From IMG/VR virus record IMGVR_UViG_3300009503_000024: a DNA stretch of 64,000 nt, one strand, 5' to 3'. This stretch comes from an uncultured virus (IMG/VR IMGVR_UViG_3300009503_000024) (lineage: Duplodnaviria; Heunggongvirae; Uroviricota; Caudoviricetes). The position numbers and the translations under genes are program-made. The notes below the pieces were generated by a model that saw nothing but the letters and a program-made list of their open reading frames with translations, was not told the DNA's origin and made no database searches. Every line of letters starts with the position of its first letter. Position 1 is the first letter of the stretch. Shown one piece after another: positions 6,548-62,941 of this stretch.

Positions 6548-7207
6548 TTAATTTATTCTTTCAAGATTTCTTTTAAAATATTTTTTTATATTAACTCCTT
6601 TAATTAGTAAATCATTAACATCTTTACAACCTGGATAATTTATTTTTATTTTAAAAATTTCTATTGTATCTTTCAAATGTTTATTTACTTTTAATAAATT
6701 ATCTCCTGCTTCATCACCATCACACACAAGATATATTCTATCAAAATATCTATATATTATTTCTTGCTGTATATCAGACATTTTATTACCAATTACAGCA
6801 ATAGCATTTTTTAATCCGGCTTGATGTAAACTCATAGTATCTATTTGCCCTTCTGTTATAAAAACTTTTCTATTATAATACTTATCTAATACTCTATTTA
6901 AATTAAAAAACATTCTACTTTTTTCATATATATATTTAAAATTATGGGAACCAACATATTTCATATGACCATTATTTTCTATTGATCTACAAAAAAATGC
7001 TACTATTCTATTCCTTAAATCATAAAAAGGAATAGTAATAGAATTTCTTACTTTTGGAGTATTAAAAATTTCTTCATTTTTTATAAAACCAAGACCAAAA
7101 GTTTTTATTGTATTTAAATTTAACCCTCTATTTTTTAAATAATCCATACTTTCTTTAGTATGGTTTAATACCAAAAAATCTTGAATTTTTTGATACTCTT
7201 TTATCAT
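6548..7207 (-). CDS. dnaG: DnaG-type primase catalytic core/TOPRIM, no zinc-binding domain
   Basis: YLKNRGL, FGLGF, ITIPFYD, KY, ITEGQIDTMS, CDGDEAG, KDVND. Confidence 0.88.
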   Translation of the reverse strand: MIKEYQKIQDFLVLNHTKESMDYLKNRGLNLNTIKTFGLGFIKNEEIFNTPKVRNSITIPFYDLRNRIVAFFCRSIENNGHMKYVGSHNFKYIYEKSRMFFNLNRVLDKYYNRKVFITEGQIDTMSLHQAGLKNAIAVIGNKMSDIQQEIIYRYFDRIYLVCDGDEAGDNLLKVNKHLKDTIEIFKIKINYPGCKDVNDLLIKGVNIKKYFKRNLERIN

Positions 7208-7431
7208 TTTTCATCCACTTTTATTAAATCAAATTTTTTATCTTTATCAAAATTGCATTTAATTTTAGCACCATATAAAGTTATATTTATATTATCGTTT
7301 TTACATTCTTGACAACGCCAAACAGGATTTTCTTCATAAATGATTCCTGGAGTTTTATGTTTTAAAACAATAACTTGCTCACCACCATCAGTTAAAAGAT
7401 TAAAATATTTACCACAAAATTTACATTCCAT
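7204..7431 (-). CDS. Small zinc-ribbon protein
   Basis: CKFC...CQEC. Confidence 0.6.
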   Translation of the reverse strand: MECKFCGKYFNLLTDGGEQVIVLKHKTPGIIYEENPVWRCQECKNDNINITLYGAKIKCNFDKDKKFDLIKVDEK

Positions 7432-7747
7432 AATGCACCTCCAATATTTTTTTTAATTTTTCTTCTGAATAATTCCCTTCATAATACATCAAATAATTAT
7501 TTTTAACTATAATCATTGTAGGAAATGCTTTAATACCAATATTTTTTAAACTTTTTGCATCATTAATATTATTAACATTTATAATAGTAAATCTTAACTT
7601 TCTATCATTTAAAAATCTTACAATTTTATTTATAAAATCGCAGCAAGGTTTACAACCTTGCAAAGTAAAAATAACTATATCATTATTTTTAACTAACTCA
7701 TCAAAATTAATCATATGTCTAAATCCAATATAGGAATATAATAGCAT
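7421..7747 (-). CDS. Thioredoxin/glutaredoxin-like protein
   Basis: FTLQGCKPC active site, GIKAFPT cis-Pro motif; start probably at MINFDE. Confidence 0.85.
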   Translation of the reverse strand: MLLYSYIGFRHMINFDELVKNNDIVIFTLQGCKPCCDFINKIVRFLNDRKLRFTIINVNNINDAKSLKNIGIKAFPTMIIVKNNYLMYYEGNYSEEKLKKILEVHYGM

Positions 7748-7938
7748 CTAACATAAGATGGTTTTGCATCTATATATATTCTATTATCTATACCACCTTC
7801 AATGATTAAAAACCTCATTTTATTTTTATTTAAACTACTATTACCTTCATAGCGCACAATTACTTCCCCTTGATACTTATGTATTATTTTATAATACTTA
7901 CCAATTTCTAATTCTTTCTTTCTAATCATTTTTACCAC
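7711..7938 (-). CDS. Hypothetical protein
   Basis: ORF with GAGGTGG RBS. Confidence 0.6.
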   Translation of the reverse strand: MVKMIRKKELEIGKYYKIIHKYQGEVIVRYEGNSSLNKNKMRFLIIEGGIDNRIYIDAKPSYVRCYYIPILDLDI

Positions 7939-7958
7939 CTCTTAATTTTAATTTGTTA

Positions 7959-7990
7959 ATTATAAAAGCAAACAATAAAAGATTTTTCTA
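7959..7990 (-). promoter_or_regulatory. Promoter-like motif TAGAAA-N20-TATAAT (class 2)
   Basis: Repeated motif with conserved spacing. Confidence 0.6.
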
Positions 7991-8446
7991 TTTATTCCAA
8001 AAAAAATATTCTTTTATATCTTCATCTAATGGTAAACCCTTTGCTTCATAAAGCCATACTTTTAAATAACTTTCTTTTTCATTATTATATTCTAATCTCA
8101 AAGTTCTTTCAATTATATTTTTATCATTATCTATAATACCAGAATCTTGAAAAGCATCGTTTAACAATTTATAAAGATTATTTGTATCTCTGCCTTTTTT
8201 CATATTAACTGGTATCATTTCAAGGATTACTGTTTTATCTTTAAATTTAGGACATTTATTTTGCATCGCTTGAACCTTTATTTCCATCATCAAAACATCT
8301 TTAGCTTCTTTTGCTTTATTATTCATATAAAACACAACTTTACCATTTCTATATGCTGAATTATATAAAGAATTTACTGAAGGTGGTATAGACAATTTAA
8401 AAAAATATTTTTTTATTAAATCTTTATTATTTTGTTTCAATTCCAA
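7988..8446 (-). CDS. rusA: RusA-family Holliday junction resolvase
   Basis: PPSVNSLY; RDTNNLYKLLNDAFQDSGIIDND.NI catalytic pattern. Confidence 0.88.
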   Translation of the reverse strand: MELKQNNKDLIKKYFFKLSIPPSVNSLYNSAYRNGKVVFYMNNKAKEAKDVLMMEIKVQAMQNKCPKFKDKTVILEMIPVNMKKGRDTNNLYKLLNDAFQDSGIIDNDKNIIERTLRLEYNNEKESYLKVWLYEAKGLPLDEDIKEYFFWNK

Positions 8447-8448
8447 TT

Positions 8449-9543
8449 TTAAATTCCCTTCTTTCCTTGCATAATTTTTTTCAATAAATCACTATCAAAT
8501 TTTATTTCGGGATAAGCAAGTTTTAATACAGGAATATTTATTTTATTATCCTCCATTAATTTTAAAACTTGTTCTATTGTTTCACTATCAATATTTAATT
8601 TTTTTACTAATTCATCTTTTAAATCAGATGATTTTATTTTACCTCTTTCTATAATTTCTTCAATTTTCTTTTCTATATCAGCTGGCCATGGTTTGTTGGT
8701 CTCAACACCAATACCTCTATCATCAATAAAAGCAATAGATGAATAAGGCTTTATATTTGTTATTTCATCATAAGGTATATTATATTTATCTAAATAATCT
8801 TTTATCATTTTATATGCTTTTTTATCATAACTAATTCTAGCACTAAAAATAATTATTGAATAACCCTTTTCTTTTAATCTACGTATTATTTCAACATTCT
8901 CTTTTATAGGTTCACCAATTATATCATATCTTCCTTCGTGTCTTGCTATTGTTCCATCTAAATCAATAGCAATTTCTTTTTTTCTATTACTTACAACATT
9001 ATTACATTTTTGACAAGATTCATTTTTAATTAATGTTCCATCAGTATCAGAATGAGCTTCACAATCCATCCCTTCTTCGTATTTTACAACTCTATTTCTA
9101 CCCCAATCTTTAGCACAATACAAAGCCTTATCCGCTTCTTTAAAAATATCATCTATTTTTTTATTTTTATCATATTCTGTATAACCTATAGAAACAGTTA
9201 TATTACCTTCAATGTTAGGAATTTTTATTTTACTTATTTCTTCCTTAACCATATTCAAATAATTTTCAACATTATCTTTTTCAGGTATTAAAATAACAAA
9301 CTCTTCTCCACCCCATCTATATGTTAGTAAATTTTTATCTAAATATTTTGCTATTGTTTTTAAAACCTCATCCCCAACATCATGCCCATATGTATCATTT
9401 ATCTTTTTAAAATGGTCTATATCTATTACCCCAAAATATGCTGGTTTTACTTTTTTAACAGTTTCATCAAAAGCATTCCTATTCCATAAACCCGTTAAAT
9501 TGTCTTTATAAGCTAATTTTTTTAATTTATCTACATTAGTCAT
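8449..9543 (-). CDS. GGDEF diguanylate cyclase fused to HAD-superfamily domain
   Basis: DNLTGLWNR, DIDHFKKINDTYGHDVGD, RWGGEEF, TVSIG, ADKALYCAK..GRN; then IAIDLDGTI, IIFSAR, KP, FIDDR. Confidence 0.93.
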   Translation of the reverse strand: MTNVDKLKKLAYKDNLTGLWNRNAFDETVKKVKPAYFGVIDIDHFKKINDTYGHDVGDEVLKTIAKYLDKNLLTYRWGGEEFVILIPEKDNVENYLNMVKEEISKIKIPNIEGNITVSIGYTEYDKNKKIDDIFKEADKALYCAKDWGRNRVVKYEEGMDCEAHSDTDGTLIKNESCQKCNNVVSNRKKEIAIDLDGTIARHEGRYDIIGEPIKENVEIIRRLKEKGYSIIIFSARISYDKKAYKMIKDYLDKYNIPYDEITNIKPYSSIAFIDDRGIGVETNKPWPADIEKKIEEIIERGKIKSSDLKDELVKKLNIDSETIEQVLKLMEDNKINIPVLKLAYPEIKFDSDLLKKIMQGKKGI

Positions 9544-9544
9544 A

Positions 9545-10363
9545 TTATGCTTTCATAAGAACCCATTCCTGGGCATCTTCATCCCAAACCCATTTTTGCC
9601 CCGTAGGTGGTGGAGTTGTAGGTTTAGGTTTAGATACTTTACCTTCAATTTCTGCATAAATTTTTGGATATTCATCTATATTAATATCTAGCTGCGCTAT
9701 CAATTTATCATACTCAACATCATTTATTTTATTAAAAATAAAATTTTTAGTCAAAACTTCAAAAGCATCTTTTTTAAAATTTTTATAATACTCTGATGCT
9801 TTAAATTCTTTTTCATAATCAACAGGTTTTTCTGCTAATTCCTGACTAGTAATAAATAAATCAACATAATGACTATACAAATTTTTTAATTCTTTTTTTA
9901 ACGAACCTTCCGCTTTTGGTGAAGATGATATATCAGCATCATACAATATTTCAATAGCTTTTCTTAACTTTTCCTTATTTATTTTTATTCCTTGCATATT
10001 CTTTTCTTCTATACTTTCAATATAACCTTCAGCAATTTCAATAAGTTCCGCAACTTCTTTATCAATTACTATTTTTTCATCTTTTTCATCCATTTTTTTA
10101 CCTCCATATAAATTATTATCATAATCAAAATTAACATTTATACTACTATATTTATCTAAACCTTGAAATATCATCATAAGTTCAGATTTTATATCAATAC
10201 ACCATTTTCTAAATTCTTCAGATTCATAAGTTTCTTTATCAACAATAAAAAAAATTGTATTCCAATCATCAGAAATTTCTGTTTTATATTGTTTTTTAAA
10301 AAATTTCTTTTTAAATGATTCTGTTATTACTTTTATTATTTCTTCTATTATTTCTTCATCCAT
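9545..10363 (-). CDS. Hypothetical acidic protein with internal second start (10093)
   Basis: Pro/Thr linker and WVWDEDAQEW tail; two near-identical GGAGGTAn-ATGGATGAA start contexts. Confidence 0.75.
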   Translation of the reverse strand: MDEEIIEEIIKVITESFKKKFFKKQYKTEISDDWNTIFFIVDKETYESEEFRKWCIDIKSELMMIFQGLDKYSSINVNFDYDNNLYGGKKMDEKDEKIVIDKEVAELIEIAEGYIESIEEKNMQGIKINKEKLRKAIEILYDADISSSPKAEGSLKKELKNLYSHYVDLFITSQELAEKPVDYEKEFKASEYYKNFKKDAFEVLTKNFIFNKINDVEYDKLIAQLDINIDEYPKIYAEIEGKVSKPKPTTPPPTGQKWVWDEDAQEWVLMKA

Positions 10364-10390
10364 TTTTTACCTCCTATTTATAATATATAT

Positions 10391-10408
10391 AAATATAAAA
10401 AAATAACT
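10391..10408 (-). promoter_or_regulatory. Late-type promoter-like motif AGTTATTTTT-N3-TATTT (class 3)
   Basis: Same motif at 11362, 44869, 58666, 62924, each just upstream of a gene start. Confidence 0.65.
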
Positions 10409-10416
10409 TAAGTAAA

Positions 10417-10468
10417 ATTGGGCTATTGCAACTATCGAATCGATTCAAATTCGTTTCAATAGCCCAAT
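10417..10468 (-). terminator. Long hairpin, probable terminator or processing site
   Basis: attgggctattg / caatagcccaat 12-bp arms, inner cgaat/attcg pairing, T-rich tail on minus strand. Confidence 0.6.
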
Positions 10469-10481
10469 CATTGTTCTATAA

Positions 10482-10763
10482 TCATTTTACATTTTTTAAA
10501 TTTTGAGGTTCAAAATTCTCATCTATTGGGTTATCTAAACTGAAAACCCCAAACTGATTCTTACAATAAGGACATAGTAATAATGTCCTCCTACTTTTTG
10601 AATCAATCTTTATTGCTTCATTCCAACTAACCCAAACATCACCATCAGCATCACTACAGTTTTTACATCTAAATAATTTCTTATCTTTATAATCTTCTAT
10701 TGTCGCCTGTTTCTTTTTCTTTTCTGGCTTTTCATCATCAAGAATATTTACCATTCTAATCAC
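10482..10763 (-). CDS. Zinc-ribbon protein
   Basis: CKNC...CPYC. Confidence 0.7.
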   Translation of the reverse strand: MIRMVNILDDEKPEKKKKQATIEDYKDKKLFRCKNCSDADGDVWVSWNEAIKIDSKSRRTLLLCPYCKNQFGVFSLDNPIDENFEPQNLKNVK

Positions 10764-10804
10764 CTCCTTTTCATATTCTTAAAATCAATCATTTTATTCA
10801 CTGT

Positions 10805-11341
10805 TTAATATAATTTTATTTTCTTAATATCTTCAATTCCATACCCCAAAGTAGCCAACTCTTGCAATAAAATTCGATTTATTTCTTCATTAGAAAGTTC
10901 TTTAATTTCATTTTTATATTTACGATACATTCTTTCGTAAATATCTTGTATCTTTTCTTTTTCTTCATCTAATATTTTTATTTGTTTTGAAGGTGGTTCA
11001 TATCTATCTGGATCTCTACCTTGAGGTACCAGATTATACCTATTACCACGGCCAACATTCGTTTGACTTCTACTTGTTTCTGGCAATTGTAAATATAATG
11101 CTTTTATTTCATCCTTTGAAACTAAATTCCAACTGCCATTTATTTTAATCCAAAACCCACTTAAACCTTCTTTTGCAGCAATTTTTTCAGTTATTCTGGC
11201 AACCACATCTCTTAAATCTCTTTTTCTAAAAAACGGATATTTATTATATATATCATCAACTGTTGAATTAATATTAAAATTATTTTTTTTCAATCTAGAA
11301 ACTATATATTTTTCCAAAGGACTATTTTCAAAAAACATCAT
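10805..11341 (-). CDS. Hypothetical protein
   Basis: ORF with AGGAG RBS behind class 3 motif. Confidence 0.7.
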   Translation of the reverse strand: MMFFENSPLEKYIVSRLKKNNFNINSTVDDIYNKYPFFRKRDLRDVVARITEKIAAKEGLSGFWIKINGSWNLVSKDEIKALYLQLPETSRSQTNVGRGNRYNLVPQGRDPDRYEPPSKQIKILDEEKEKIQDIYERMYRKYKNEIKELSNEEINRILLQELATLGYGIEDIKKIKLY

Positions 11342-11361
11342 GTTTAACTCCTTTTTTATAA

Positions 11362-11379
11362 AAATATATAAAAATAACT
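11362..11379 (-). promoter_or_regulatory. Late-type promoter-like motif (class 3)
   Basis: AGTTATTTTT-ATA-TATTT. Confidence 0.6.
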
Positions 11380-11782
11380 ATTGTTGTTTTTTCTTTGGAT
11401 TCCTATCATAATACTTATAATAATAATAATCTCCACCATAATATATTGCTATCTCTCTATAAACTAAATCACCTTTTGTGGTAAGAATATGCTGACGTTT
11501 TAACAATGGCAAATTATAATAATCTATACCATATTTAGTAATTAAACCATTTTCAAAGAGCCTTTTATGTATATTTAAAAATTCTTTATCAGTTATTTTT
11601 CTATTTATATTTTTAATCCAATAAAATTGTTCATAAAGTTTATGCGGTTTATTATCTCCATAAAACCCTAAAATCAAAACAAATTTATTTAGATTTATCA
11701 TGCAACATCTCCTCCATATTATATATTTTAAAAATTTCTTCAAAATCTTTATATATTTTATCAGCTGTTTTTTCATCAACAT
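11378..11782 (-). CDS. Hypothetical protein
   Basis: True start probably MINLNK after GGAGG inside upstream gene. Confidence 0.55.
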   Translation of the reverse strand: MLMKKQLIKYIKILKKFLKYIIWRRCCMINLNKFVLILGFYGDNKPHKLYEQFYWIKNINRKITDKEFLNIHKRLFENGLITKYGIDYYNLPLLKRQHILTTKGDLVYREIAIYYGGDYYYYKYYDRNPKKKQQ

Positions 11783-12359
11783 ATTTCGAAATTACACCTT
11801 TAATTAATATAAATAATAAACCAAGTCTTTCTTCTACAATTTTATCTAAACGCGAACTTTCTTCTAATTCAAGTTGTAATTTTATTTCTTTTTCAATTAT
11901 TGTATGCATTTCTTTTGTATAATTTATAATTAAAGCTTCTAAATATGGATCTATTACTTCACCTTGTTGCGTTTCAATCATTTTAATTCTTTCTATTATT
12001 TTGTTTTTAAAAAAATCAAGAACAGCTGCTCTATTTCTTACATTTATAGATAAAGATTTATCTTGCGTTTTATCTTGCATCTGGCTTACAGTATCTGGAA
12101 CATGAGTTGGCAAATAAACTGTTGGCAATTCATCCAAAGTAGGAGCATTTATTTCTTTCTTTTTAATTTCAATATATTCTGCTAATTCTTTTTTCGTAAA
12201 TTTAATTTTCCCCTTAAATCTTTGTTTTATCATATTATAAATATCTTTAGTAGGAATTTGTTGATTATTTTTTAACATTGTTTTTATTATTTGTTCAACA
12301 TCAATTAATATTGTAGGAGGTAATAAATAAATATTACTTAATGCCATTCTTTCCTCCAA
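11685..12359 (-). CDS. Hypothetical helical protein
   Basis: Long ORF with typical codon pattern, GGAGG RBS before MALSN. Confidence 0.7.
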   Translation of the reverse strand: MEERMALSNIYLLPPTILIDVEQIIKTMLKNNQQIPTKDIYNMIKQRFKGKIKFTKKELAEYIEIKKKEINAPTLDELPTVYLPTHVPDTVSQMQDKTQDKSLSINVRNRAAVLDFFKNKIIERIKMIETQQGEVIDPYLEALIINYTKEMHTIIEKEIKLQLELEESSRLDKIVEERLGLLFILIKGVISKYVDEKTADKIYKDFEEIFKIYNMEEMLHDKSK

Positions 12360-14234: not shown

Positions 14235-14528
14235 TTATTCCTCCTCTATTATAGCTAATATATCACTTTCATCAACGACAAGCAAAGTATCGTCATCAGT
14301 AAAAATTGAACCACCATAAAGCGTTACTAAAACCCTATCTCCTTCTTTTACTTCAAAAGTTCTTTTTTTGCCATCTTGATGTTGGCCTGAGCCAACTTTT
14401 ACAACTGTTGCTTTTCTTGGTGAATTATCAGAAATAGTACCAGGTAAAATTATACCTTTTTTATTTACTTCTACCGCCTCATCTAATTTTATTATTATAT
14501 TCCTACCTAATGGTCTATACATAATCAA
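14235..14528 (-). CDS. groES: Co-chaperonin GroES
   Basis: RPLGRNIII, GIILP mobile loop, VVKVGSG, VKEGDRVL, ESDILAII. Confidence 0.95.
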   Translation of the reverse strand: MIMYRPLGRNIIIKLDEAVEVNKKGIILPGTISDNSPRKATVVKVGSGQHQDGKKRTFEVKEGDRVLVTLYGGSIFTDDDTLLVVDESDILAIIEEE

Positions 14529-23010: not shown

Positions 23011-23646
23011 TTAATAACCTCTTTTTTGCCTGTCATAATTCTCTTTATTTTTAGCAACATATAATTTATAAAAAAATTCTTTTGTAATCTTATATTGTTT
23101 ACATATATTAAAAAAATATTTCATAATAATTTCTATTATAATTTTAACTTTTTCTTTATCAAAATCATAATCACTATAAGTTTTCCAATATTTATATGGT
23201 AAATAGTCTAAAATTTGACCCCATTTTATTGATATTTCTCCAATTATTTTTTTATAATCTATTATTTTCATATCTTCATTCCAATAAAAATCTAAATTAT
23301 TAAAATCGTTTTCTCTATAACCTAAATATAAAATCATATTCATTAAAAAATGCCAAGCATCAATTAATTCAAATTGTAATTCTATTAAATCTTCATTATT
23401 TTTTATATTATAAGTTCTTTGGTCAAACTCCCAAATTTCAGCAATAAAACAATTAAAATGATATAATGATTCTTTTACCCTTTCTTTATTAGGATAATCT
23501 GGAGTAATAGAACCTCTCTTTTCATTATAAAACTTTTGTAATTCATATTGCATTTTTAGCATAATCCCCAATGCATTTTCATCATACTTTACTTCATTAG
23601 TTTTGTTTAACAAAAAAAAACATTTATTCTCTGGATTTTTACTCAT
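23011..23646 (-). CDS. All-alpha dimeric dUTPase/dCTPase (T4 gp56-like family)
   Basis: ELQFELIDAWHFLMNM, PYKYWK, YVAKNKENYDRQKRGY. Confidence 0.88.
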   Translation of the reverse strand: MSKNPENKCFFLLNKTNEVKYDENALGIMLKMQYELQKFYNEKRGSITPDYPNKERVKESLYHFNCFIAEIWEFDQRTYNIKNNEDLIELQFELIDAWHFLMNMILYLGYRENDFNNLDFYWNEDMKIIDYKKIIGEISIKWGQILDYLPYKYWKTYSDYDFDKEKVKIIIEIIMKYFFNICKQYKITKEFFYKLYVAKNKENYDRQKRGY

Positions 23647-24542: not shown

Positions 24543-25274
24543 TTATATAGATTTTATAAACTCTACAAAATGATTAATATCAATTTTATCCACATAAGAT
24601 ACATACCAATCTCTATTAACCTCCTCTCCATTAAATAAATTTTTATTTGAAAAAATCCTTCCGTCCTTCATGATTTGTATATTATAACCATTCTTTTTCA
24701 AACGATAATATGATTTACGTTCAATACAGAACGGTTTTATTAAATTTAATAAATTATTCAATTTTGTCTTATTAATTTTACTTCTTTTAATTTTCCTATC
24801 TCGGATTTTCATATTTATAATACGACTCACAACTGGTTCCGAAATACCAGTTATTTCACTTATTTGCCTTTGTTTGTATCCCATTTCAAACATTTTAACA
24901 ATCTTTTCAACTTCTTTATTTTTCTTTGCCATCCTTGCGATGACTTTTTCCAAGTCAATTGAATCTACAGATAATTCAATTGACTTATCTATAGCTCCAA
25001 ACACTTCATCAACTCCAATTTTATCATCATCTAAACCACAAATCTCATCTAAAGACTCGAAGTTATGGTTCTTTTTTAAAGAATTTAACCAAGCCCATTT
25101 TATCGCTTGGTTAATATAACTATTATTAATATTTTGCATTTTATTTTTATTTATATTTTCAATGACTTTCATCAATCCTTCCTGAACATTATCTTCGCCA
25201 TATCTATAAATCAAATAATTTTTATTTTTATTATAATATTCTTTTATTTTTTCATTTATATTTATATTTATCAT
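24543..25274 (-). CDS. Sigma-factor-like transcription protein
   Basis: Region 2-like EDNVQEGLMKV...YINQAIKWAWLNSLKK; region 4-like GYKQRQISEITGISEPVVSRII. Confidence 0.7.
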   Translation of the reverse strand: MINININEKIKEYYNKNKNYLIYRYGEDNVQEGLMKVIENINKNKMQNINNSYINQAIKWAWLNSLKKNHNFESLDEICGLDDDKIGVDEVFGAIDKSIELSVDSIDLEKVIARMAKKNKEVEKIVKMFEMGYKQRQISEITGISEPVVSRIINMKIRDRKIKRSKINKTKLNNLLNLIKPFCIERKSYYRLKKNGYNIQIMKDGRIFSNKNLFNGEEVNRDWYVSYVDKIDINHFVEFIKSI

Positions 25275-26761: not shown

Positions 26762-27868
26762 TTATTTATTCAAAAACTTTATTTCGCTATAATTTCTACT
26801 TATCTCTTCAACTACTTCAAAAGCGCGCTTTATAGCTTGATCCATATTATAATATTTATAATCACCAAGTCTACCACAAAATATAATATTTGGAAAATAG
26901 CATTTAGCAAAATCCAAATAAATACTATATAAATCAATATTTTTCTTAGTTAAAACTGGATAACATTTAATATATTTGTTTAATTTTGGCACCTCACAAA
27001 TTTTTACTTTATTTTTTATTTTTAAATTATATAACTTAGCATAATCAACATATCTAGTATAAATAGGATGCAATGGTAAATTCAATATCTTAAAATTATA
27101 TTCTTCACTATTTATTCTATCAAATTTTAAACCTATATAATCTAAATCACCCAAAATATTATTAAAAAAAGTATCAATACTACCAGTATAAATTATCATA
27201 TCTCTCTTATATTTTTTAAAATAATCATAAAAAGTAAACTTATTATTATATATTTTTATACCTTTTGCCATATTTTTAAAAATATTACAATAACCATATT
27301 TGGGTAATCCTTGATATTTATCTTGAAAATAATTTTTATTATTAAATGTATGAAAAGCGCTAACTCTATTAAAAATTATAGGTTTTAATTCTTCAAAATA
27401 ATTCCCCCATTGCTTTTCACTATATTTTCTATAAACTTCTTCATATATTTTTATTCCTAATTTAAAGGTTTTTTTATCATTTGTTAATTCATTTAAAGAA
27501 ACTAATTTATTAATACCATATTTTTTTAATAAATAATTTGATATTTTTTTACCATAAAAATCATCAATATTTTTAAGATTAAGTGGCAAATAAAAATAAC
27601 CACTATAAGTTTTAATAGCAATTTTGTGTTTAATTTCTATAAATTCACCAAATTTTCGTATATAATCCCAAATTTCTTTATTATTTGTATGAAACAAATG
27701 AGGCCCATAAAGATGAACATAAGTCTTTATTTCACTATCATATTTATCAGCACAATTACCACCTATTATATCTCTCTCTTCAAACATAACTAAATCTTTA
27801 AAATTTAATCTATTTAATCTTTCAGCTATAGTTAAACCTGTTAAACCTGCACCAACAATAATAATCAT
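26762..27868 (-). CDS. glf: UDP-galactopyranose mutase
   Basis: GAGLTG FAD motif, IGGNC.D, HLYGPHLFHT, YSEKQWG, YF.DKYQGLP..GY, YTG.ID, GRLGDYKYYNMDQAI. Confidence 0.95.
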   Translation of the reverse strand: MIIIVGAGLTGLTIAERLNRLNFKDLVMFEERDIIGGNCADKYDSEIKTYVHLYGPHLFHTNNKEIWDYIRKFGEFIEIKHKIAIKTYSGYFYLPLNLKNIDDFYGKKISNYLLKKYGINKLVSLNELTNDKKTFKLGIKIYEEVYRKYSEKQWGNYFEELKPIIFNRVSAFHTFNNKNYFQDKYQGLPKYGYCNIFKNMAKGIKIYNNKFTFYDYFKKYKRDMIIYTGSIDTFFNNILGDLDYIGLKFDRINSEEYNFKILNLPLHPIYTRYVDYAKLYNLKIKNKVKICEVPKLNKYIKCYPVLTKKNIDLYSIYLDFAKCYFPNIIFCGRLGDYKYYNMDQAIKRAFEVVEEISRNYSEIKFLNK

Positions 27869-27869
27869 A

Positions 27870-28928
27870 TTAAAACTCCTTTATATAAGATTTATAATAA
27901 TTTATATCTTTTAATTTTTTATAATCTTCACTTTCTTTTATTCTTTTTAAAATTACATTATACATATTAATTTTCTTCTTTATATCTTCATTACTATCAA
28001 TTAACAAATATTCTTTTATAATTTTAAAAAAATCTTTATATACATTAAAAGCTTTTTCCCAATTACATTTTTTCATAATTAAAGGTATACAATCCAACGC
28101 CAAAGCTTCAAAAAACCTTATAGATGAAAACTCATTAACATCATAAGATGGAATAATTAAAGTAAATTTAGCTATTTTAAGTCTTTCATAATATTTATTA
28201 TAATTAATATAATTATTTTCTTTTGTATATTTATTTTTCAAATATATCTCTTTATTAGTTAAATTTATAGATTTTATAAAACTATCTATATATTTTCTTT
28301 CTTTTGTTAAAACTGTATAACCCAAAACAAAATCTATTATTTTATTCAAATTATTATTAACATTATAAAAATAACCATATTCAATAAAAGGGAAATATTT
28401 TGTATTAATTTCATTAGAACTATAAAAAAAATAATTTTGTATATGCGAATACAAATTTTTATATTGTAATTCTTGTGGGTCATAAATAATTTGTTTTATA
28501 TTTTTATCTTTAAATTTTTCTAAAACGCGCAAAGTAATAAATATTCTGCGATAAAATTCCTTAACAATATTTATATTATTTTTTAAAATAAAATCATTTT
28601 CTTTTAAAGACTTCAAATATAACTTTTTTATTTCTTGTTCATTTCCCCTATGTAATTTTTCACTTAATGGCGTATATAATATCACTAATTCATCAAAATT
28701 ATACTCATTTAATTTACTATCAATTTTTTTATAAAAAAGATCCCATGCCTCTAATTTTTCTTTAAATTCTAAAGGAGTAATATTAACATTATTTATATAT
28801 TTATATTGTTTTTCATTATCAATAAGAATTTTATATTTAATATCACCTAATTCTAATATTTTTAATGCATTATTTACTCTTAATCTTTCTCTTAAATTAT
28901 TTACTAAAAAACTTATCAATAGCCTCAT
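27870..28928 (-). CDS. GT-B fold glycosyltransferase-like protein
   Basis: C-terminal AKFTLIIPSYD..EFSSIRFFEALALDCIPL donor-binding pattern; soluble. Confidence 0.7.
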   Translation of the reverse strand: MRLLISFLVNNLRERLRVNNALKILELGDIKYKILIDNEKQYKYINNVNITPLEFKEKLEAWDLFYKKIDSKLNEYNFDELVILYTPLSEKLHRGNEQEIKKLYLKSLKENDFILKNNINIVKEFYRRIFITLRVLEKFKDKNIKQIIYDPQELQYKNLYSHIQNYFFYSSNEINTKYFPFIEYGYFYNVNNNLNKIIDFVLGYTVLTKERKYIDSFIKSINLTNKEIYLKNKYTKENNYINYNKYYERLKIAKFTLIIPSYDVNEFSSIRFFEALALDCIPLIMKKCNWEKAFNVYKDFFKIIKEYLLIDSNEDIKKKINMYNVILKRIKESEDYKKLKDINYYKSYIKEF

Positions 28929-29394
28929 CTATATTTCTCCCTTTATTATATATTAATATTTTATTCATAATTTTTGATTTTTTATAAAATTCTGAAAACA
29001 TTTTTCTTTCAACAATCAAATTTTGTTTATAATATAAACCATCTCTTGCTTTTATTCTCTTTTGAGCAACTCTAGCATCTAAATCTATTAATACAAGCAT
29101 TACTAAATTAATATTTTCACCAAAAATTACTCTTTCAACATAATTCAAATCTAATTCTATATTTCTTAAAGTTCTTGAATAAACAACTTCAGATATATGA
29201 TACCTATCAAAAATCATATTTTTATCTTTATTTAATTCAAAATTTTGTTTTAACACTGATAATTTATCTATAACATTTAATTTTTGAAATTCATTCATAT
29301 CAATTCTTGGAGCTAATACATATTTACCTTTTTCTAAAACTTTATTTATAAACGTAGTTTTACCAGCTCCATCTATACCTTCTACAATAATCAT
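28897..29394 (-). CDS. Thymidylate-kinase-like dNMP kinase
   Basis: IIVEGIDGAGKTT, IFDRYHISEVVY, KRIKARD. Confidence 0.9.
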   Translation of the reverse strand: MIIVEGIDGAGKTTFINKVLEKGKYVLAPRIDMNEFQKLNVIDKLSVLKQNFELNKDKNMIFDRYHISEVVYSRTLRNIELDLNYVERVIFGENINLVMLVLIDLDARVAQKRIKARDGLYYKQNLIVERKMFSEFYKKSKIMNKILIYNKGRNIDEAIDKFFSK

Positions 29395-29942
29395 AAATCA
29401 ATCCTCTTTTTAAATTCTTTTATTTTATTAAAAAAATCATCCATTAAATCTTTTCTATATCCATTTCTAACAATATACCCTGGATGATATAAAAAACAAA
29501 GTTTAACTTTTCCATCAATATAATTATTTTGCATTATATCTAATATAGTATTTTTTGCTATAGAACCAAGACAAATTATAGCTTCCAAATTTTTCATATT
29601 TTGTATCTCTCTTACCAAAAATTTATTTTTACAATTTTCAATATATTTTTTATTAACATTTTTAACACAACATTTTATAACATTAACTAAATAAAAATCA
29701 TTTATGGTTAACCCTAACAAATTAACCATATTATCTAAAATTACTTCACCTCTTTTTTTATCTTCTTTTTTAGCAAAAAAATTAAATGGCACAATATCTT
29801 CGTTTTTTATTGTATTATCAACTGGAGCTGGACTTTGCGCTACTATTAAAACCTTAGCATTTATATTACCAATATCGTCCGCTTTCTTTTCATTAATACC
29901 ACAAATATCACATCTAAAAATTTCTTCTTTCCACTTACTCAT
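29391..29942 (-). CDS. Uracil-DNA glycosylase-like protein (family 4-like, Fe-S)
   Basis: CDIC, VAQSP, YLVNVIKC, ENC, IICLG..A, LYHPGY. Confidence 0.82.
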   Translation of the reverse strand: MSKWKEEIFRCDICGINEKKADDIGNINAKVLIVAQSPAPVDNTIKNEDIVPFNFFAKKEDKKRGEVILDNMVNLLGLTINDFYLVNVIKCCVKNVNKKYIENCKNKFLVREIQNMKNLEAIICLGSIAKNTILDIMQNNYIDGKVKLCFLYHPGYIVRNGYRKDLMDDFFNKIKEFKKRIDL

Positions 29943-30931
29943 TTAATCAACCTCTTAAATTCTTCAAAATTTTTAAATTCATTCTTGTGATGTTTATGAT
30001 AAAAAACACTATTTTTTAAATAATATATCTCACAATTAAAATAAATAAATTCAAACATAGAAGTATGTATTACGTCATCTGGATCACACATATAAAATAT
30101 AACAGGTCTATATTTTAAAATATTATAATATGATTGTCTATCATTTGAAACCTTTACATTTGGTATTTTAGTATCTATAGCTACATTATTAGGAGCTGTA
30201 TATAATATTGTATAATTTCTGAACCTTTTACTCTTTTCTAAAACTCTATATACTTCTTTAACTTTATAATATTTATCTGATTGTCTAAATGGCACAAAAA
30301 TTATATTTTTAAACTTATTAACCGCAGGAACTACATCTATTAAATCAAAACTAAAAATATTATTATCTATTACAGACTTCGGAAAAAGTAAATGTTGATT
30401 TAAAGTGCTAACAACCATTTTATATTTTTTATGCAATTCCATATCTAATTTCCGAAAACCATCTAAAAAATATAATTTTGTTTTTATAGTATCAGTTACG
30501 ATAGCCCAATAAATTACATCTATATTTTTAAAACCTATAGTTCCTATAATGTTAGGTGTAAATACAATTAAATCAAATCTTTTCTTTGTAAGTATATCTT
30601 TAACAAATTTTATCCATTTATGATTTTTCCTTGTTTCATAAGCATTTGTTGCATAGCAATCAGTTTCTATAATATTAACTTTAACTTTACTTTTATTTAA
30701 TTCTCTTTCTAAAAATTCTTTATTTTTATTATTTTTAGGTATAGTTAAATAAACTTCCCCCGATTTCATTAATTTTATTTTTGTTATAACTGCATTAAGA
30801 TTTCCATCAGCGGATAAATTATATACATTACTACCATATTCGCGCATTGAAACCATAGGTATTAATAAAACTCTCTTACCATCCATTTCTTTTTCTAGAT
30901 AAGAATATAAATTTAATTTATAATCACTCAT
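29939..30931 (-). CDS. Putative second glycosyltransferase-like protein
   Basis: ~330 aa alternating beta/alpha pattern, IFVPFRQSD and HTSMFEFIY..C segments in GT-B-like positions; mainly context-based. Confidence 0.4.
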   Translation of the reverse strand: MSDYKLNLYSYLEKEMDGKRVLLIPMVSMREYGSNVYNLSADGNLNAVITKIKLMKSGEVYLTIPKNNKNKEFLERELNKSKVKVNIIETDCYATNAYETRKNHKWIKFVKDILTKKRFDLIVFTPNIIGTIGFKNIDVIYWAIVTDTIKTKLYFLDGFRKLDMELHKKYKMVVSTLNQHLLFPKSVIDNNIFSFDLIDVVPAVNKFKNIIFVPFRQSDKYYKVKEVYRVLEKSKRFRNYTILYTAPNNVAIDTKIPNVKVSNDRQSYYNILKYRPVIFYMCDPDDVIHTSMFEFIYFNCEIYYLKNSVFYHKHHKNEFKNFEEFKRLIK

Positions 30932-31383
30932 TTTATTAACTCCAATTCTATTTTTGCTTCTTTTAATAAAGAAGTACCTAATTCATCAGAATATTTTTCA
31001 ATATAAAAAACTTTTTTGATTCCAGCGTTTATTATAGCTTTAGCGCAAAAGCTACAAGGGCTATAATATGTATATAAATCGGCTCCTTCGGTTGCAATAC
31101 CATGATATGCTGCTTGAACTATAGCATTTAATTCTGCGTGAGCCCCTACACAATATTCTAAATTAAAACCACTTTTATCTTTATTACGTATACAATAACC
31201 TATTTCCAAACAATTTTTTACACCCCTTGGGGCTCCATTATAACCAGTAGAAATTATATGTCCATTTTTAACTAATATAGCACTAACTTTACGACGCAAA
31301 CACGTACTTCTTTTCGCTATTACCTTCATTACTTCTATAAACATTTCTTGTTTAGAAATTCTATTCTCCATATTTAAACTCAA
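30928..31383 (-). CDS. dCMP deaminase family protein
   Basis: RSTCLRRKV, TGYNG, HAELNAI, SPCSFC. Confidence 0.93.
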   Translation of the reverse strand: MSLNMENRISKQEMFIEVMKVIAKRSTCLRRKVSAILVKNGHIISTGYNGAPRGVKNCLEIGYCIRNKDKSGFNLEYCVGAHAELNAIVQAAYHGIATEGADLYTYYSPCSFCAKAIINAGIKKVFYIEKYSDELGTSLLKEAKIELELIK

Positions 31384-32452
31384 CTTTCTTTTCCATTAAA
31401 ATATTTTTTGCTATCTGATTACACATATTACAATGTATACTACATCTGTTTTCACAATCATAATTAACTAATCCATCTGATTTAAAAAGTTCTCGTTCAA
31501 ACATTTTTAAATCTTCATATTTTATTTGTTTTAAAATATTAGGGACAAATTTATTTTCTTTATTATTACCTATATTTTCTAAATGAAACCATAAATCTGC
31601 AAAAGAATAATCGTTTTCTATCCCATCAATAATATCCATATAAATTTTAGCAACATTAACTATAAAATTAGTACTTGCTGTTCTACCAGTAATTTTAAAT
31701 CTATCATAACCAATATCTGTATAATAATGTATCCATTGTGGTAATATAAATCTAGTTTTAAGCCATTCACCAAAATCTGTATTCCTAGCTTGTATACAAT
31801 CTCTCATTGGATAATTATTAAATAATTTACTTTCTTCAACTGTTTTAATATTTTGATGATTTAAATAACACATTATTCTGTTTGGACATTGAAACAAACA
31901 AAATTCATTTACCATTAATTCTAATTCTAAATTAAGAAAAGTTTTTCTAAATTTTATTAAAAAATCAAAATCTCTATTTTTCATTAAACTCATACATACT
32001 TTTTTTATCTTAGGATAACGTTGTAATAATAACTGCATCTTATAAATAGATTCTATATGATAAATAGTTGAAAGTTCTATATCTATATCTAAATCTGAAT
32101 TTTGTAAAATTTCGAGTAAAAATGTTGAAGAAACTGTTATTTTTTTTATTTTATAAATTTTCAAAAATTCTATAAAATTATCCTTATCAAATTTAGTTTT
32201 ATCTATATTCAACCCATTCATAGTAAAATTTAATATTATATTATTATCTTCCATTAGTTGTTTTATATTATTAAAATGTTCTAAAGATTTTTCTGGAAGC
32301 CTATATAATGGTCTTGCAGTATATTCTGCAAAAGTAGAAGAAACATTCCCAAACATTTCAACAATTTTTGATTTATTATAATACTTATTAAATTCTATCA
32401 CTTTTTCTATAAGATCTTTTTCAAAATTATTACCTATCATTAATTTTATCAT
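31361..32452 (-). CDS. Peptidase U32-family Fe-S protein (probable O2-independent hydroxylase)
   Basis: ELSTIYHI, LELMVNEFCLFQCPNRIMC, further Cys, GYDRFKITGR. Confidence 0.82.
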   Translation of the reverse strand: MIKLMIGNNFEKDLIEKVIEFNKYYNKSKIVEMFGNVSSTFAEYTARPLYRLPEKSLEHFNNIKQLMEDNNIILNFTMNGLNIDKTKFDKDNFIEFLKIYKIKKITVSSTFLLEILQNSDLDIDIELSTIYHIESIYKMQLLLQRYPKIKKVCMSLMKNRDFDFLIKFRKTFLNLELELMVNEFCLFQCPNRIMCYLNHQNIKTVEESKLFNNYPMRDCIQARNTDFGEWLKTRFILPQWIHYYTDIGYDRFKITGRTASTNFIVNVAKIYMDIIDGIENDYSFADLWFHLENIGNNKENKFVPNILKQIKYEDLKMFERELFKSDGLVNYDCENRCSIHCNMCNQIAKNILMEKKVEFKYGE

Positions 32453-38936: not shown

Positions 38937-39027
38937 TTTAACTCCTTTTTTATTTAAAAAAAATTTGATAATTTTAAATTTCTATATTTCATTTTTGCTC
39001 TCAGTTTTATATTTTAATATTAATTCT

Positions 39028-39139
39028 CAGTATATCAGCATATCAGTATATCAGCATATCAGTATATTAATATACCAGTATACCAGTATATCAGCATATC
39101 AGCATATCAGTATATTAATATACCAGTATACCAGTATAT
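39028..39139. repeat. Array of fourteen 8-bp units (CAG[T/C]ATA[T/C]), putative origin iterons
   Basis: cagtatat/cagcatat/cagtatac with two taatatac variants; a 40-bp block recurs at 48-bp period; in the largest non-coding gap. Confidence 0.85.
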
Positions 39140-39719: not shown

Positions 39720-40805
39720 TCATTCCAATAAAAAATTTCTTAACTTTTCAGGAGTTATAAAATTAACCGCTGCATCATAACCTTTTTGAGCAGTTGTAAT
39801 TGCTGTAAAATCAAGAGCATTTACTTCATTTTCAATTTTCATATCATCTTCAGAAGGATACCAATCTAAAATTTCTATTGAAGGATAAATATCGGGGTTT
39901 AACTTATGCAAAAGTTTATAATCTTCTATTTCATCCCAAGCAAATTCTTCAAAAATATGCATTATAACAGTTTCTAATCTTCCTGCAATATCACCTATAT
40001 TATGTGTTAATATTTTTTGTGGTATAGTATTAGGTGATGTACCGACTAATATAATTTTTGTTGCACCATATTTTATAGCAAGTTCAACTGGATTATTTCT
40101 TCCTACACCACCATCAACTCCCAACCTTTTTAAACTTTTAAATTCAAAATCTTCTGCTTCAAAAATTATTGGTATTGCACTTGTCAATAATGCCATTTTA
40201 TCAGCAGGAAAACCTGGGTTTTCTTTACTATTTATTACAACCATTTCACCATTTATTATATCCGTTGTTGTTAAAACTATTTCTGTTTTTAAATCACCTA
40301 ATTTTATACCATCAAAATGTTTTACAACTAATTTTTTTAATCCATCTTTATTTAAAATACAATTACCTTTATTATCTTTAAAAATTTGACTTGCCATACC
40401 AAGCCAATCACCTAAATTTTTAAATTGCAACATACCAGAATAAATATCTGAATTTAATAATATATTATTCCATATATTTGCCGCTTCTTCTAAATTATCT
40501 TTATATTTTGCGATTAATAATGTATTAAGCCCACCAACAGAAGTACCACAAATCATATCAACATATTTTAATACACCAATTTTATATAACCAATAAACGA
40601 AGAAAAATTGCCGTCTTCCCAACGAACCTCCGCCAGGTAAAACTAACGCAAGTTTTTCTTTATTTTTAATTCTAAAATTTTTATATTCTTCTAAAATTTG
40701 TATAAAATCTGGTGATGGTATTTGTTCAATAAGTTTAAAAGGTTGCGGGCGTTTGTCTTTGCCCCACGAAAACCATAAAAAATTAGGCATGTTTAGCCAC
40801 CTCAT
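39720..40805 (-). CDS. Patatin-like phospholipase
   Basis: LVLPGGGSLG oxyanion loop, GTSVG nucleophile, SAIP..F, VDGG..NNP; likely start at 40790 (MPNF). Confidence 0.92.
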   Translation of the reverse strand: MRWLNMPNFLWFSWGKDKRPQPFKLIEQIPSPDFIQILEEYKNFRIKNKEKLALVLPGGGSLGRRQFFFVYWLYKIGVLKYVDMICGTSVGGLNTLLIAKYKDNLEEAANIWNNILLNSDIYSGMLQFKNLGDWLGMASQIFKDNKGNCILNKDGLKKLVVKHFDGIKLGDLKTEIVLTTTDIINGEMVVINSKENPGFPADKMALLTSAIPIIFEAEDFEFKSLKRLGVDGGVGRNNPVELAIKYGATKIILVGTSPNTIPQKILTHNIGDIAGRLETVIMHIFEEFAWDEIEDYKLLHKLNPDIYPSIEILDWYPSEDDMKIENEVNALDFTAITTAQKGYDAAVNFITPEKLRNFLLE

Positions 40806-44868: not shown

Positions 44869-44886
44869 AAATACAAAAAAATAACT
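44869..44886 (-). promoter_or_regulatory. Late-type promoter-like motif (class 3)
   Basis: AGTTATTTTT-TTG-TATTT-ATTAAATA. Confidence 0.65.
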
Positions 44887-58665: not shown

Positions 58666-58683
58666 AAATAATAAAAAATAACT
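58666..58683 (-). promoter_or_regulatory. Late-type promoter-like motif (class 3)
   Basis: AGTTATTTTT-TAT-TATTT-AATAAATA. Confidence 0.7.
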
Positions 58684-59538: not shown

Positions 59539-60540
59539 TTAAAAGTTAATTCTATTAGTTTCATTATAACGTGGGTCATTAATTTGTTTTAATGCATTAT
59601 TAATTGTTTCTAATGAAACTATTCGTCTTATATCTGTTTCTGGTAAAATACTCATAGATATATCTTGTCTTGTTAAAATACTTCTAAAAGCGCCAGATAC
59701 CTGTACTTCATCAACAACATATTTATTGCCATCAAATTTTCTAATAATTAAATCACCAGTTCTTAAAATAGGTTCTGGTAAAGTCCAAGCATCATATGTT
59801 TGAGAAACTTTAAGCCCATAAACTACACCATCAAATTTTTTTGATGGTTTTTCATTAAACCTCAATAATACATTTATCGGTGGATAATAACCACCAACAA
59901 TACCAGTACCAAAACATAAAGAACATCTACTACGACCTCTAAAATCAGCATCAGCATCTGCTGTATTAGTGCATTTACAAGGAATACCTAGTGGATAATC
60001 ACTAGCCCATCTTCTCATATATACATAACATTCAATTCCACCATTTTGCAACATAAATTTAAAATCTGTTTGTATTCTCTTTAATACATCTTTCATTGTA
60101 TCTTCTATATTTCCTTGATCTGCTTCTGGAAAAACATAACTTGGTTCTATTGGACTTTTTTGCCCTTCAAAAAATAAACGTTCTTGTAATTTATAAACTG
60201 TTTGACCTTCTTCATTAATAAAAATTTCTATATCTTGCGTATTTTCTTTATTATTAATTATTTTACTAACCCAAAAATAAAATATAACATTTTGAGGAAA
60301 TATAGGTAATTTAAAATTAAATGAAGTTCCTGTTATAATTTGTTGATTAGCTTTATATTTCAATAGTGGAAATAAACTATAATAAACATTATAACCTTTT
60401 AAATATTTATCTGTTTCTGGTTCCCATTCAATATAAAATTCATCAAAAGCACCTTTATAAATACCACCATAAAGTGGATCGAATAATTGCTGTTGTTTAG
60501 CATCTGAAACTGTCGTTTTATCTAATTTTATAATTGCCAT
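59539..60540 (-). CDS. Head-tail/neck virion protein with FN3-like and zinc-binding parts
   Basis: W...KGYNVYYS; CKC...CSLCFGTGIVGGY. Confidence 0.55.
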   Translation of the reverse strand: MAIIKLDKTTVSDAKQQQLFDPLYGGIYKGAFDEFYIEWEPETDKYLKGYNVYYSLFPLLKYKANQQIITGTSFNFKLPIFPQNVIFYFWVSKIINNKENTQDIEIFINEEGQTVYKLQERLFFEGQKSPIEPSYVFPEADQGNIEDTMKDVLKRIQTDFKFMLQNGGIECYVYMRRWASDYPLGIPCKCTNTADADADFRGRSRCSLCFGTGIVGGYYPPINVLLRFNEKPSKKFDGVVYGLKVSQTYDAWTLPEPILRTGDLIIRKFDGNKYVVDEVQVSGAFRSILTRQDISMSILPETDIRRIVSLETINNALKQINDPRYNETNRINF

Positions 60541-61316: not shown

Positions 61317-61820
61317 TTAGAAATTCCAACCAAAAGTAGCTCTAATAAATTGACCTAATTGAGATTGATAACGAGGACTTGCCAAAACAACTGTTCCTAT
61401 AGGTAAATTACGTTTTACTAATTTAATTTTTTCAATATAAATTTTATAAAAATTTTCATGCGCTGTACCTAATTTTCCAACTCTATCTAACGTTAAACTT
61501 AAACCATTATCACTATAAGAAAAATCATTCATAGTCCATTTCATTTGCATAAATAAATTTGTATACATCATTACACCATTTATTAAAATCGCATCAAGAG
61601 AACGCGGCCAAGTCTCTAATGTATAACCTGTAAACGGTGGATAAATATTGAAATCTTGTATTACTAATTCTACATATGCTAACGTTTTTTTGTCTCTTAT
61701 ATCTTTATCCTTTTCAACATCATAAAAAGGTTTTGGTAATACAGTATAAATTTTTTCTAATATTTCATAATATTTTTTATTTAATCCTGTATCTGGTTGA
61801 GTATTACTCTGTATTGTCAT
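61317..61820 (-). CDS. Probable head-tail adaptor protein
   Basis: DFN.YPP.T, FSYSDNGLSLTLDR; position. Confidence 0.5.
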   Translation of the reverse strand: MTIQSNTQPDTGLNKKYYEILEKIYTVLPKPFYDVEKDKDIRDKKTLAYVELVIQDFNIYPPFTGYTLETWPRSLDAILINGVMMYTNLFMQMKWTMNDFSYSDNGLSLTLDRVGKLGTAHENFYKIYIEKIKLVKRNLPIGTVVLASPRYQSQLGQFIRATFGWNF

Positions 61821-62923: not shown

Positions 62924-62941
62924 AAATATCTAAAAATAACT
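62924..62941 (-). promoter_or_regulatory. Late-type promoter-like motif (class 3)
   Basis: AGTTATTTTT-AGA-TATTT-AATAAATA, directly before AAGGAGG. Confidence 0.7.

Follow-up and report, generated by a model that had tools for sequence, protein, structure and literature searches.

A GGDEF protein of a large uncultured myovirus with a clade-wide Cys/His tail and a HAD module: a possible short polyvalent cargo protein

The gene at positions 8449 to 9543 (minus strand) of the window, i.e., of the whole stretch of 64,000 nucleotides from an uncultured virus (IMG/VR record IMGVR_UViG_3300009503_000024) that was analyzed, encodes a protein of 364 amino acids. Judged by its domains and relatives, it is best read as a short member of the polyvalent cargo proteins of a large-myovirus family. 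The occurrence of a cyclase in a phage is already known. New are a Cys3His tail with a helix Cys that changes its position, and the lack of the I-site loop throughout the clade. The protein has the following features:

8449–9543, minus strand: protein of 364 aa with GGDEF domain, Cys/His tail, HAD domain and helical tail (from the open reading frame, Pfam and composition)
9091–9513, minus strand: GGDEF domain, aa 11–151, with D41, N49, D58, GGEEF (78–82), K145 and R149 intact
9013–9117, minus strand: clade-specific Cys/His module (C143, C161, H164, C177), a putative zinc or redox site
8974–8997, minus strand: cyclase-HAD junction VVSNRKKE, which fits only the loose form [VIL]-x-[AS] of the putative head-protease motif
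8644–8982, minus strand: capless HAD phosphatase-like domain, aa 188–300, of the BT0820/EcbF-BcbF/phrog_1238 type
8626–8640, minus strand: KIKSS just past the HAD domain, which fits [VI][KRE][AS]S, a putative head-protease site
8452–8625, minus strand: C-terminal helical segment, aa 307–364, clearly shared with P0002 only

The Pfam profile PF00990 (GGDEF) matched aa 11–151 with an E value of 5.8e-35 over all 161 of its 161 positions. The score was 120.9 bits (cut-off 23.8), and TIGR00254 scored 123.4 bits (cut-off 37.4). Searches with NCBIfam and PHROGs were in line with the Pfam domain calls for the whole protein, and AlphaFold predicted the domain (aa 11–150) with a pLDDT above 90. An earlier interpretation of the letters alone (the sequence-only reading) had described a complete GGEEF site with guanine-binding N and D, and every motif that it quoted was indeed present, i.e., DIDHFKKIND at aa 41–50, GHDVGD at 53–58, GGEEF at 78–82, CEAH at 161–164, CQKC at 177–180 and DLDGT at 194–198. 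The domain thus has GG[DE]EF together with the full set of metal, guanine and phosphate residues, the roles of which we presume from PleD numbering. D58, which we take to be the equivalent of GacA position 347, is invariant in the aligned rows of the clade. Hypr enzymes, which are GGDEFs that form cGAMP, are described as having Ser or Thr and not Asp at this position (PMC6456294). The residues support the proposed assignment to c-di-GMP rather than hybrid cGAMP synthesis, and the active site of the diguanylate type appears to be intact.

The nine residues directly N-terminal of GGEEF are DKNLLTYRW, and thus the RxxD inhibitory site is absent, as had been stated. It was found in none of the 16 clade rows compared with 181 of 225 other GGDEF motifs in the proteins fetched; this site is common in GGDEF cyclases, but not required. 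In addition, the I-site loop of the clade is three to four residues shorter than that of cellular enzymes. The DNLT motif starts after only 13 residues, which leaves no room for a receiver, a PAS domain or a long coiled coil. The claim that a sensor domain is missing holds for the known Pfam sensors, but the Cys/His tail may have a regulatory function. It is established that GGDEF catalysis requires a dimer (see also PMC8085984), and a dimer prediction with zinc and GTP, which reached a score of 0.25 compared with a mark of 0.42, speaks neither for nor against a dimer. No domain that would obviously dimerise the 364-aa protein was recognised, so that a constitutive output is not given.

A search with the whole protein yielded nine matches of at least 177 bits, and the next match was at 129 bits. 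One of the relatives, P0001, differs from this protein by a single substitution. A profile of the tail matched P0121, P0123, P0128, P0138 and P0173 among 150 listed representatives, a DNA pattern of the tail led to four metagenome loci (L081–L084), all of which are syntenic blocks of large phages, and a HAD search contributed one further member, P0270. The clade was defined as 16 members, with the P0128 cluster counted once; a part of it was recruited via the Cys motif, but the first nine members and P0270 were not. Wherever the context is visible (five contigs), the clade is phage-borne. In the clade alignment A8, which omits the fragment P0138, the residues D41, D43, F45, K46, N49, D50, G53, H54, G57, D58, GGEE, K145, G148 and R149 show no variation across the 15 rows. 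The metal-, base- and phosphate-binding residues thus stay invariant while the members are 40–63% identical. A FastTree calculation with 88 GGDEF excerpts and 148 columns, which left out P0138, P0265 and P0266, united 14 of 15 members with a support of 0.933; P0173 clustered outside of this group with the GGDEF of L004, a locus of the relative G001 described below.

The most characteristic residues of the clade are found at the end of the cyclase domain. C161 is present in 16 of 16 members, and H164 and C177 are present in 15 (P0138 ends early). The last helix has a Cys in all 16 members, at position 143 in 13 of them and four residues earlier, at position 139, in P0008, P0173 and L081; both or neither were never seen. 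Such a shift by four residues is expected of a residue that is bound to one face of a helix. Among the other GGDEFs, the helix Cys was seen in 5 of 221 and the following CxxH in 1 of 221, and the second Cys of CQKC is variable across the clade. Members without a HAD domain have the Cys and His residues, too, and, thus, these belong to the cyclase and not to a linker. Two claims of the sequence-only reading have to be revised accordingly: the "Cys-rich linker" is a clade-wide module of the cyclase, and the description as an unregulated cyclase is doubtful, because the tail belongs to the cyclase throughout the clade and an obvious dimerising domain is missing. The location of three Cys and one His beside K145 and R149 suggests a putative zinc site.

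The structure of the tail was predicted with low pLDDT values of 51–55, with a beta-hairpin at aa 164–173. No PDB chain aligned past position 51 of the 71 positions of the tail profile, and an ESM Atlas search with aa 105–200 retrieved generic GGDEF clusters only. The exact tail pattern, which misses divergent members, had no match in GTDB genomes or in IMG/VR. A scan of IMG/VR with the A1 alignment gave mostly generic GGDEFs among the best 80 of 152 matches, with L004 among them. A search for longer proteins with aa 105–185 yielded none in 19 candidates, a weak blank since P0173 and P0270 exist. In DgcZ, zinc is sensed by a distinct CZB domain at the N-terminus, with a site of three His and one Cys, and not by a C-terminal tail. 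CZB had no Pfam match in the 364-aa protein at E values up to 0.1, and the tail is a different, unnamed motif. Literature searches retrieved nothing relevant on a Cys or zinc tail of a GGDEF. A thioredoxin-like gene (CKPC) is encoded at 7421–7747, two genes past RusA, and a CxxC gene of L083 (3554–3910) is similarly placed; the thioredoxin-like gene could bear on a redox control of the Cys tail.

The HAD domain that had been proposed from DLDGT was recovered as well. Pfam Hydrolase_3 matched aa 191–253 with an E value of 2e-5, and all four HAD motifs could be aligned without a cap insert (DLDGT 194–198, FSAR, NIKP 263–266, FIDDR 272–276); they are conserved in all four of the sequences aligned. 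The nearest PDB entries were 2OBB (E 5.7e-10) and 1XPJ (E 5.9e-9), and the scores stayed below the curated cut-offs (EcbF-BcbF, TIGR01689, 40.1 vs. 162 bits; BT0820, NF046079, 29.8 vs. 165 bits). HAD domains of this type are common in phages (160 records). The HAD domain directly follows the cyclase in 4 of the 16 clade members (P0001, P0002, P0003, P0270), it is located elsewhere in the same chain in P0173, which has the order GGDEF-ligase-HAD, and it is encoded by the gene next to the GGDEF gene in L083 and L084. In L081 the gene after the GGDEF gene is cut by the contig end, and the remaining members have no context. In L083 the next gene encodes a protein of 1549 aa with HAD, GNAT and Acb1-like 2H domains, while P0270 is a GGDEF-HAD-2H protein of 1638 aa and P0268 combines HAD and 2H; the Acb1 score was above the cut-off in L083 and P0268, but below it in P0270. 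P0267–P0269 have the HAD domain without a GGDEF in the chain. A HAD search of the relative G001 (76% complete) gave no match.

The combinations GGDEF-HAD, GGDEF-ligase-HAD, GGDEF-HAD-2H, HAD-GNAT-2H and ligase-mCpol-GGDEF-primpol are the mixtures of domains that characterize polyvalent proteins. Based on these arrangements the HAD domain is regarded as a separate module of phage polyvalent proteins, and the GGDEF-HAD fusion is one arrangement of shuffling modules and may be cut apart. Two further genes of the syntenic loci were observed. L082 (1496–3718) encodes within the block a second LigD-type ligase-primpol protein, with a copy of the promoter-like motif at its end, and its LigD-type ligase is fused to a GGDEF in P0173 and in G001. 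L083 (887–2398) contains a TROVE/Ro60 gene with tRNA-like sequence on its flanks, a module of the RNA-repair type.

The relative G001, a genome of 110 kb, shows such a protein among head genes. Its gene order is portal, head protease, capsid, two neck-region genes and sheath, and the neck-region genes are homologous to 61317–61820 and 59539–60540 of the window. Between them lie a gene for a ligase-mCpol-GGDEF-primpol protein of 1992 aa (L004:6719–12697) and a homologue of the tail motif of the acidic gene listed below. The 1992-aa protein contains mCpol (PF18182, E 1e-18) and GGDEF in one chain, together with a full LigD-type set of ligase, primpol and phosphoesterase and a sigma-70-like domain. 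Its GGDEF, which is related to that of the clade, lacks the helix Cys and shows only a C-x-H remnant. In the cultured phage Tunturi_5, a polyvalent gene with the domains ART-2H-GNAT (gp321) occupies this place.

In the window, the GGDEF gene is part of a block that consists of the following elements:

7988–8446, minus strand: RusA-like resolvase, the downstream end of the block here, in L082 and in L083
9545–10363, minus strand: acidic gene of 272 aa ending PKPTTPPP-G-KW-W, with homologues in the block in four loci and in the head-neck module of G001
10392–10408, minus strand: promoter-like motif AGTTATWT-N5-TATT, 29 nt ahead of the start at 10363
10482–10754, minus strand: conserved zinc-ribbon gene (domain match, cross-locus homologues)
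10805–11341, minus strand: conserved gene of 178 aa, with a second copy of the promoter-like motif ahead of it at 11363–11379

In all four loci the cyclase gene follows the same three genes (acidic KW protein, 178-aa protein, zinc ribbon). The sequence-only reading had the gene starting one nucleotide after 9545–10363; indeed, a single base separates the upstream stop codon from the ATG. The block is surrounded by genes of replication (RusA, primase, RecA, ligase) and is far from the structural module, a position that argues against a packaged cargo. A location with head genes is seen in G001, and here the gene has its promoter-like motif in common with two tail-module genes.

The motif AGTTATWT-N5-TATT, a pattern that was derived from these same sequences and chosen post hoc, occurs six times in the window compared with 0.46 expected copies (0 of 100 shuffles). 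Five copies are intergenic (62925–62941, 58667–58683, 44870–44886, 11363–11379 and 10392–10408), and they precede the starts at 62905, 58637 (just upstream of the sheath), 44839 (baseplate region), 11341 and 10363. The loci L083, L082, L081 and L084 have 2, 2, 2 and 1 copies, respectively, with fewer than 0.1 expected. A copy is directly upstream of the GGDEF gene in L083, one gene further up in L081 and L084, and three genes up in L082. In the window, a 12-bp inverted repeat (10417–10428/10457–10468) lies just ahead of the motif, and a hairpin just upstream of the motif before the GGDEF operon is found here, in L083 and in L084. The motif is absent from G001. The designation "late" is based on the copies that precede two tail-module genes.

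A late-type motif upstream of the operon had also been noted in the sequence-only reading. That a motif precedes 10363 was correct, but the sequence TATAAATA was rejected as evidence of a late promoter of the T4 type, as almost all of its 36 copies on the minus strand fall within genes, and it is the longer motif that is enriched. From the gene context, the proposal that the protein is made late and possibly packaged is plausible. In IMG/VR, the alignment of the 178-aa protein retrieved one false match in a transposase region, and the zinc-ribbon and neck queries gave no matches. A gene of 243 aa at 24543–25274 looks by eye like a divergent sigma-type gene, without a Pfam match at an E value of 0.001; its product is a candidate reader of the promoter-like motif.

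A short motif that might be the site of the head protease was found in the proteins of the block, where it recurs at the borders between domains. Of eleven patterns tried, [VI][KRE][AS]S, which was chosen after the sequences had been seen, occurred 20 times compared with 2.0 expected in 34 block proteins, 2 times compared with 1.8 expected in 52 controls, and not at all compared with 1.2 expected in 25 structural proteins. Three HAD carriers that were fetched later, and that are homologous to the discovery set, contained 5 copies vs. 0.53 expected (0 of 1000 shuffles), and 13 distant HAD carriers contained 1 vs. 1.07 expected. Close copies of the HAD domain finish with IKS, IKA, VKS, IEA or VEA right past the last helix. 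The loose form that is seen at the cyclase-HAD junction was not enriched (259 vs. 247 expected), and T4-type [VIL]-x-E sites were rejected, as their enrichment was not specific (block, 326 vs. 295; controls, 336 vs. 276). The head genes of this phage fall outside the window. In G001, the narrow motif was not enriched (2 vs. 1.1 in head and polyvalent proteins, 1 vs. 0.3 in protease and scaffold), and a motif broadened post hoc occurred 33 times vs. 7.8 expected in head and polyvalent proteins and 0 times in tail and control sets.

Strain contigs of run X3 differed from the gene in at least 11 codons. Among the differences listed (40 of 178), five were silent, four were changes at aa 176–186 and two were located elsewhere. 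The clustering at aa 176–186 fits the loose cyclase-HAD junction. In phage SPN3US, 42 head proteins are left uncut by the protease (PMC10052503), and, thus, the motif and packaging need not coincide. Reading these proteins as polyproteins is thus a lead worth following rather than a result. Should the repeated motif indeed be cut by the protease, it would provide a means of recognising packaged cargo in this uncultured phage family, and such "fusions" would be polyproteins and not coupled enzymes.

The best explanation, which we hold with moderate confidence, is that the protein would be made late, packaged into the head as cargo and used to increase the c-di-GMP level of the next host, the tail being a putative zinc site. 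The gene would be transcribed from AGTTATWT-N5-TATT and its product packed into the phage head, where the head protease might cut at [VI][KE][AS]; such a cut is certainly possible past the HAD domain and perhaps also between cyclase and HAD. After ejection into the next host, the cyclase would convert GTP to c-di-GMP without product feedback and thereby disturb the host nucleotide signalling as infection starts. The Cys3His tail, beside the phosphate-binding helix, would bind zinc or sense redox and stabilise or gate the enzyme, and the HAD domain would act separately as a nucleotide or RNA-end phosphatase. The company of 2H/Acb1-like, mCpol, GNAT and ligase domains makes a cargo acting in the next host more likely.

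An uncut, constitutive cyclase of two domains that acts late in the producing cell, with a functionally coupled HAD domain, is rather unlikely. Its c-di-GMP would shut down pili, motility or receptors, i.e., lead to superinfection exclusion or a lifestyle change, and the HAD domain might remove pyrophosphate or help the cyclase to oligomerise. The missing I-site, the junction with its loose motif match only and the fusion or adjacency of GGDEF and HAD in 7 of 16 members argue for such an enzyme. There is also a precedent, as PB1-like phages are described as raising c-di-GMP via the host cyclase YfiN, with superinfection exclusion suggested (PMC8085984). However, single proteins that lack a HAD domain make up at least 9 of the 16 members, the HAD domain occurs without a GGDEF in the same chain in P0267–P0269, and the 2H, GNAT, ligase and mCpol partners as well as the head-module position in G001 fit an injected cargo.

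It is improbable that the Cys and His residues have a structural role only, as a stabilising zinc site or a disulfide, and that a weak, undimerised enzyme serves as a GTP or nucleotide binder within the cargo. The catalytic residues are invariant at 40–63% identity, as expected for an active enzyme, and only an enzyme that forms product would be affected by the loss of the I-site. The short N-terminus of 13 residues before DNLT, without receiver, PAS domain or long coiled coil, would nevertheless fit a protein that does not reach the dimer required for catalysis, and the phage sequence is present in hot-spring runs, where stabilising sites would help.

Still more improbable is a metal- or redox-gated cyclase that is injected, that the Cys3His tail silences in the producer cell and in the head and sets free after ejection, and that, packed together with Acb1-like 2H nucleases (in G001 also with an mCpol cyclase), makes decoy cyclic dinucleotides by which guard effectors of the Panoptes type stay repressed, while the phage destroys the real immune signals. 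Panoptes is described as employing a decoy nucleotide of mCpol (PMC12657218), and a 2026 preprint states that GGDEFs may be similarly co-opted (PMC13640721). If true, this would be counter-counter-defence as well as a new mode of GGDEF regulation, and the phage-borne mCpol in G001 is of interest for a counter-defence against Panoptes. Apart from decoys, gating of the activity by the Cys3His tail would mean a kind of regulation that is new for this well-studied type of enzyme. Compared with the giants of 1,200–5,800 aa that usually contain such domains, the whole protein of 364 aa or a construct of residues 1–185 is far easier to test.

The window belongs to a large, AT-rich myovirus, as revealed by matches to tail sheath, baseplate wedge, DNA ligase, RecA, primase and RusA. 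Its sheath is 20–29% identical to the sheaths of Myrna, Finch, phage G and Tunturi_5 (14 records). The gene has a GC content of 0.250 and a GC3 of 0.112, and eleven other genes have values of 0.195–0.295 and 0.081–0.144, respectively. Two runs, both recorded as hot-spring metagenomes, contain the locus: a single contig of run X1 (possibly the source) covers 7000–12000, and a contig of run X2, from a separate study, covers 8231–11344 with one difference from the window. The concern of a misassembly, raised in the sequence-only reading, is thereby excluded, as the second contig bridges the gene and GC and GC3 are phage-like, and the gene is indeed phage-encoded, in line with its composition and four other syntenic phage contigs. 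The vast majority of GGDEF domains are cellular (of 8000 candidates that were scored, 7352 gave a match, and most of these were generic), but a host-derived gene or an assembly chimera is extremely unlikely, because contigs of both runs span the locus, which already refutes the assembly part, GC and GC3 resemble those of phage genes, four more phage contigs are syntenic, and the exact tail pattern has no match in GTDB species genomes.

The best named cellular matches pointed to Aquificota or Campylobacterota as host; this was rejected, as these matches are outside the clade and composition may drive the scores. Several other genes of the window were observed. A UDP-galactopyranose mutase, a glycosyltransferase-like gene and their neighbours (26762–30931), with homologues by eye in G001, are a possible cluster for DNA or surface glycosylation. 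The tail module ends with a gene for a patatin-like phospholipase (39720–40805, E 3e-20), and a U32 peptidase-like protein (31361–32452), a GroES co-chaperonin (14235–14528) and a dimeric dUTPase (23011–23646) are also present. Tandem repeats with a unit of about 14 nt (GCTGATATACTGAT-like, 38937–39100) lie in a gap of 475 nt that starts the replication arm, and are possibly an origin or a genome end.

Literature searches retrieved no experimental test of a virion-borne GGDEF and no phage GGDEF-HAD fusion ("HAD" also matches the English word). Phage-encoded GGDEFs like the one described here include, by GenBank annotation, Bacillus phage G gp350, SP-15 SP15_150 and proteins of YuA-like phages and Bordetella phages LK3/CN1. 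Standalone phage cyclases are mentioned in PMC10333796 and PMC8471281, and in the accessible part of the phage G paper gp350 appears as an annotation only (PMC12484599). Gp350 and the SP-15 protein were the top BFVD fold matches, but they have hydrophobic N-termini, stop right past the GRN motif, lack a Cys tail and HAD domain, and fall outside the clade.

The cellular enzymes PleD, WspR, DgcZ and DgcB share the fold and all catalytic motifs with the GGDEF domain described here, whereas the N-terminal input domain and the RxxD of canonical cellular cyclases are absent from it. The HAD domain has motifs I–IV and the size in common with 2OBB, 1XPJ, the phrog_1238 HADs and the phosphatase domain of Pnkp (4XRP). 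In contrast to the BT0820 and EcbF-BcbF HADs, its scores are far below the cut-offs and it is a module of polyproteins. HAD phosphatases of jumbo phages are linked in one paper to RNA repair (PMC7824862).

The closest known systems are the polyvalent proteins of phages and prophages described by Iyer 2017 (PMC5512222), who reported GGDEF domains in them, predicted packaging and proposed an interference with host nucleotide responses; an example is WP_004096050.1 of Acetonema longum. The words "haloacid" and "phosphatase" are absent from the main text of that article, and its supplements may list a GGDEF-HAD architecture. As in these proteins, the GGDEF is combined here with other, unrelated types of enzyme (2H, GNAT, ligase, primpol). 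The protein described here differs from them in its small size, with two enzymes only, and its clade differs in the Cys3His tail, the shorter loop at the I-site and the capless HAD domain as the usual neighbour.
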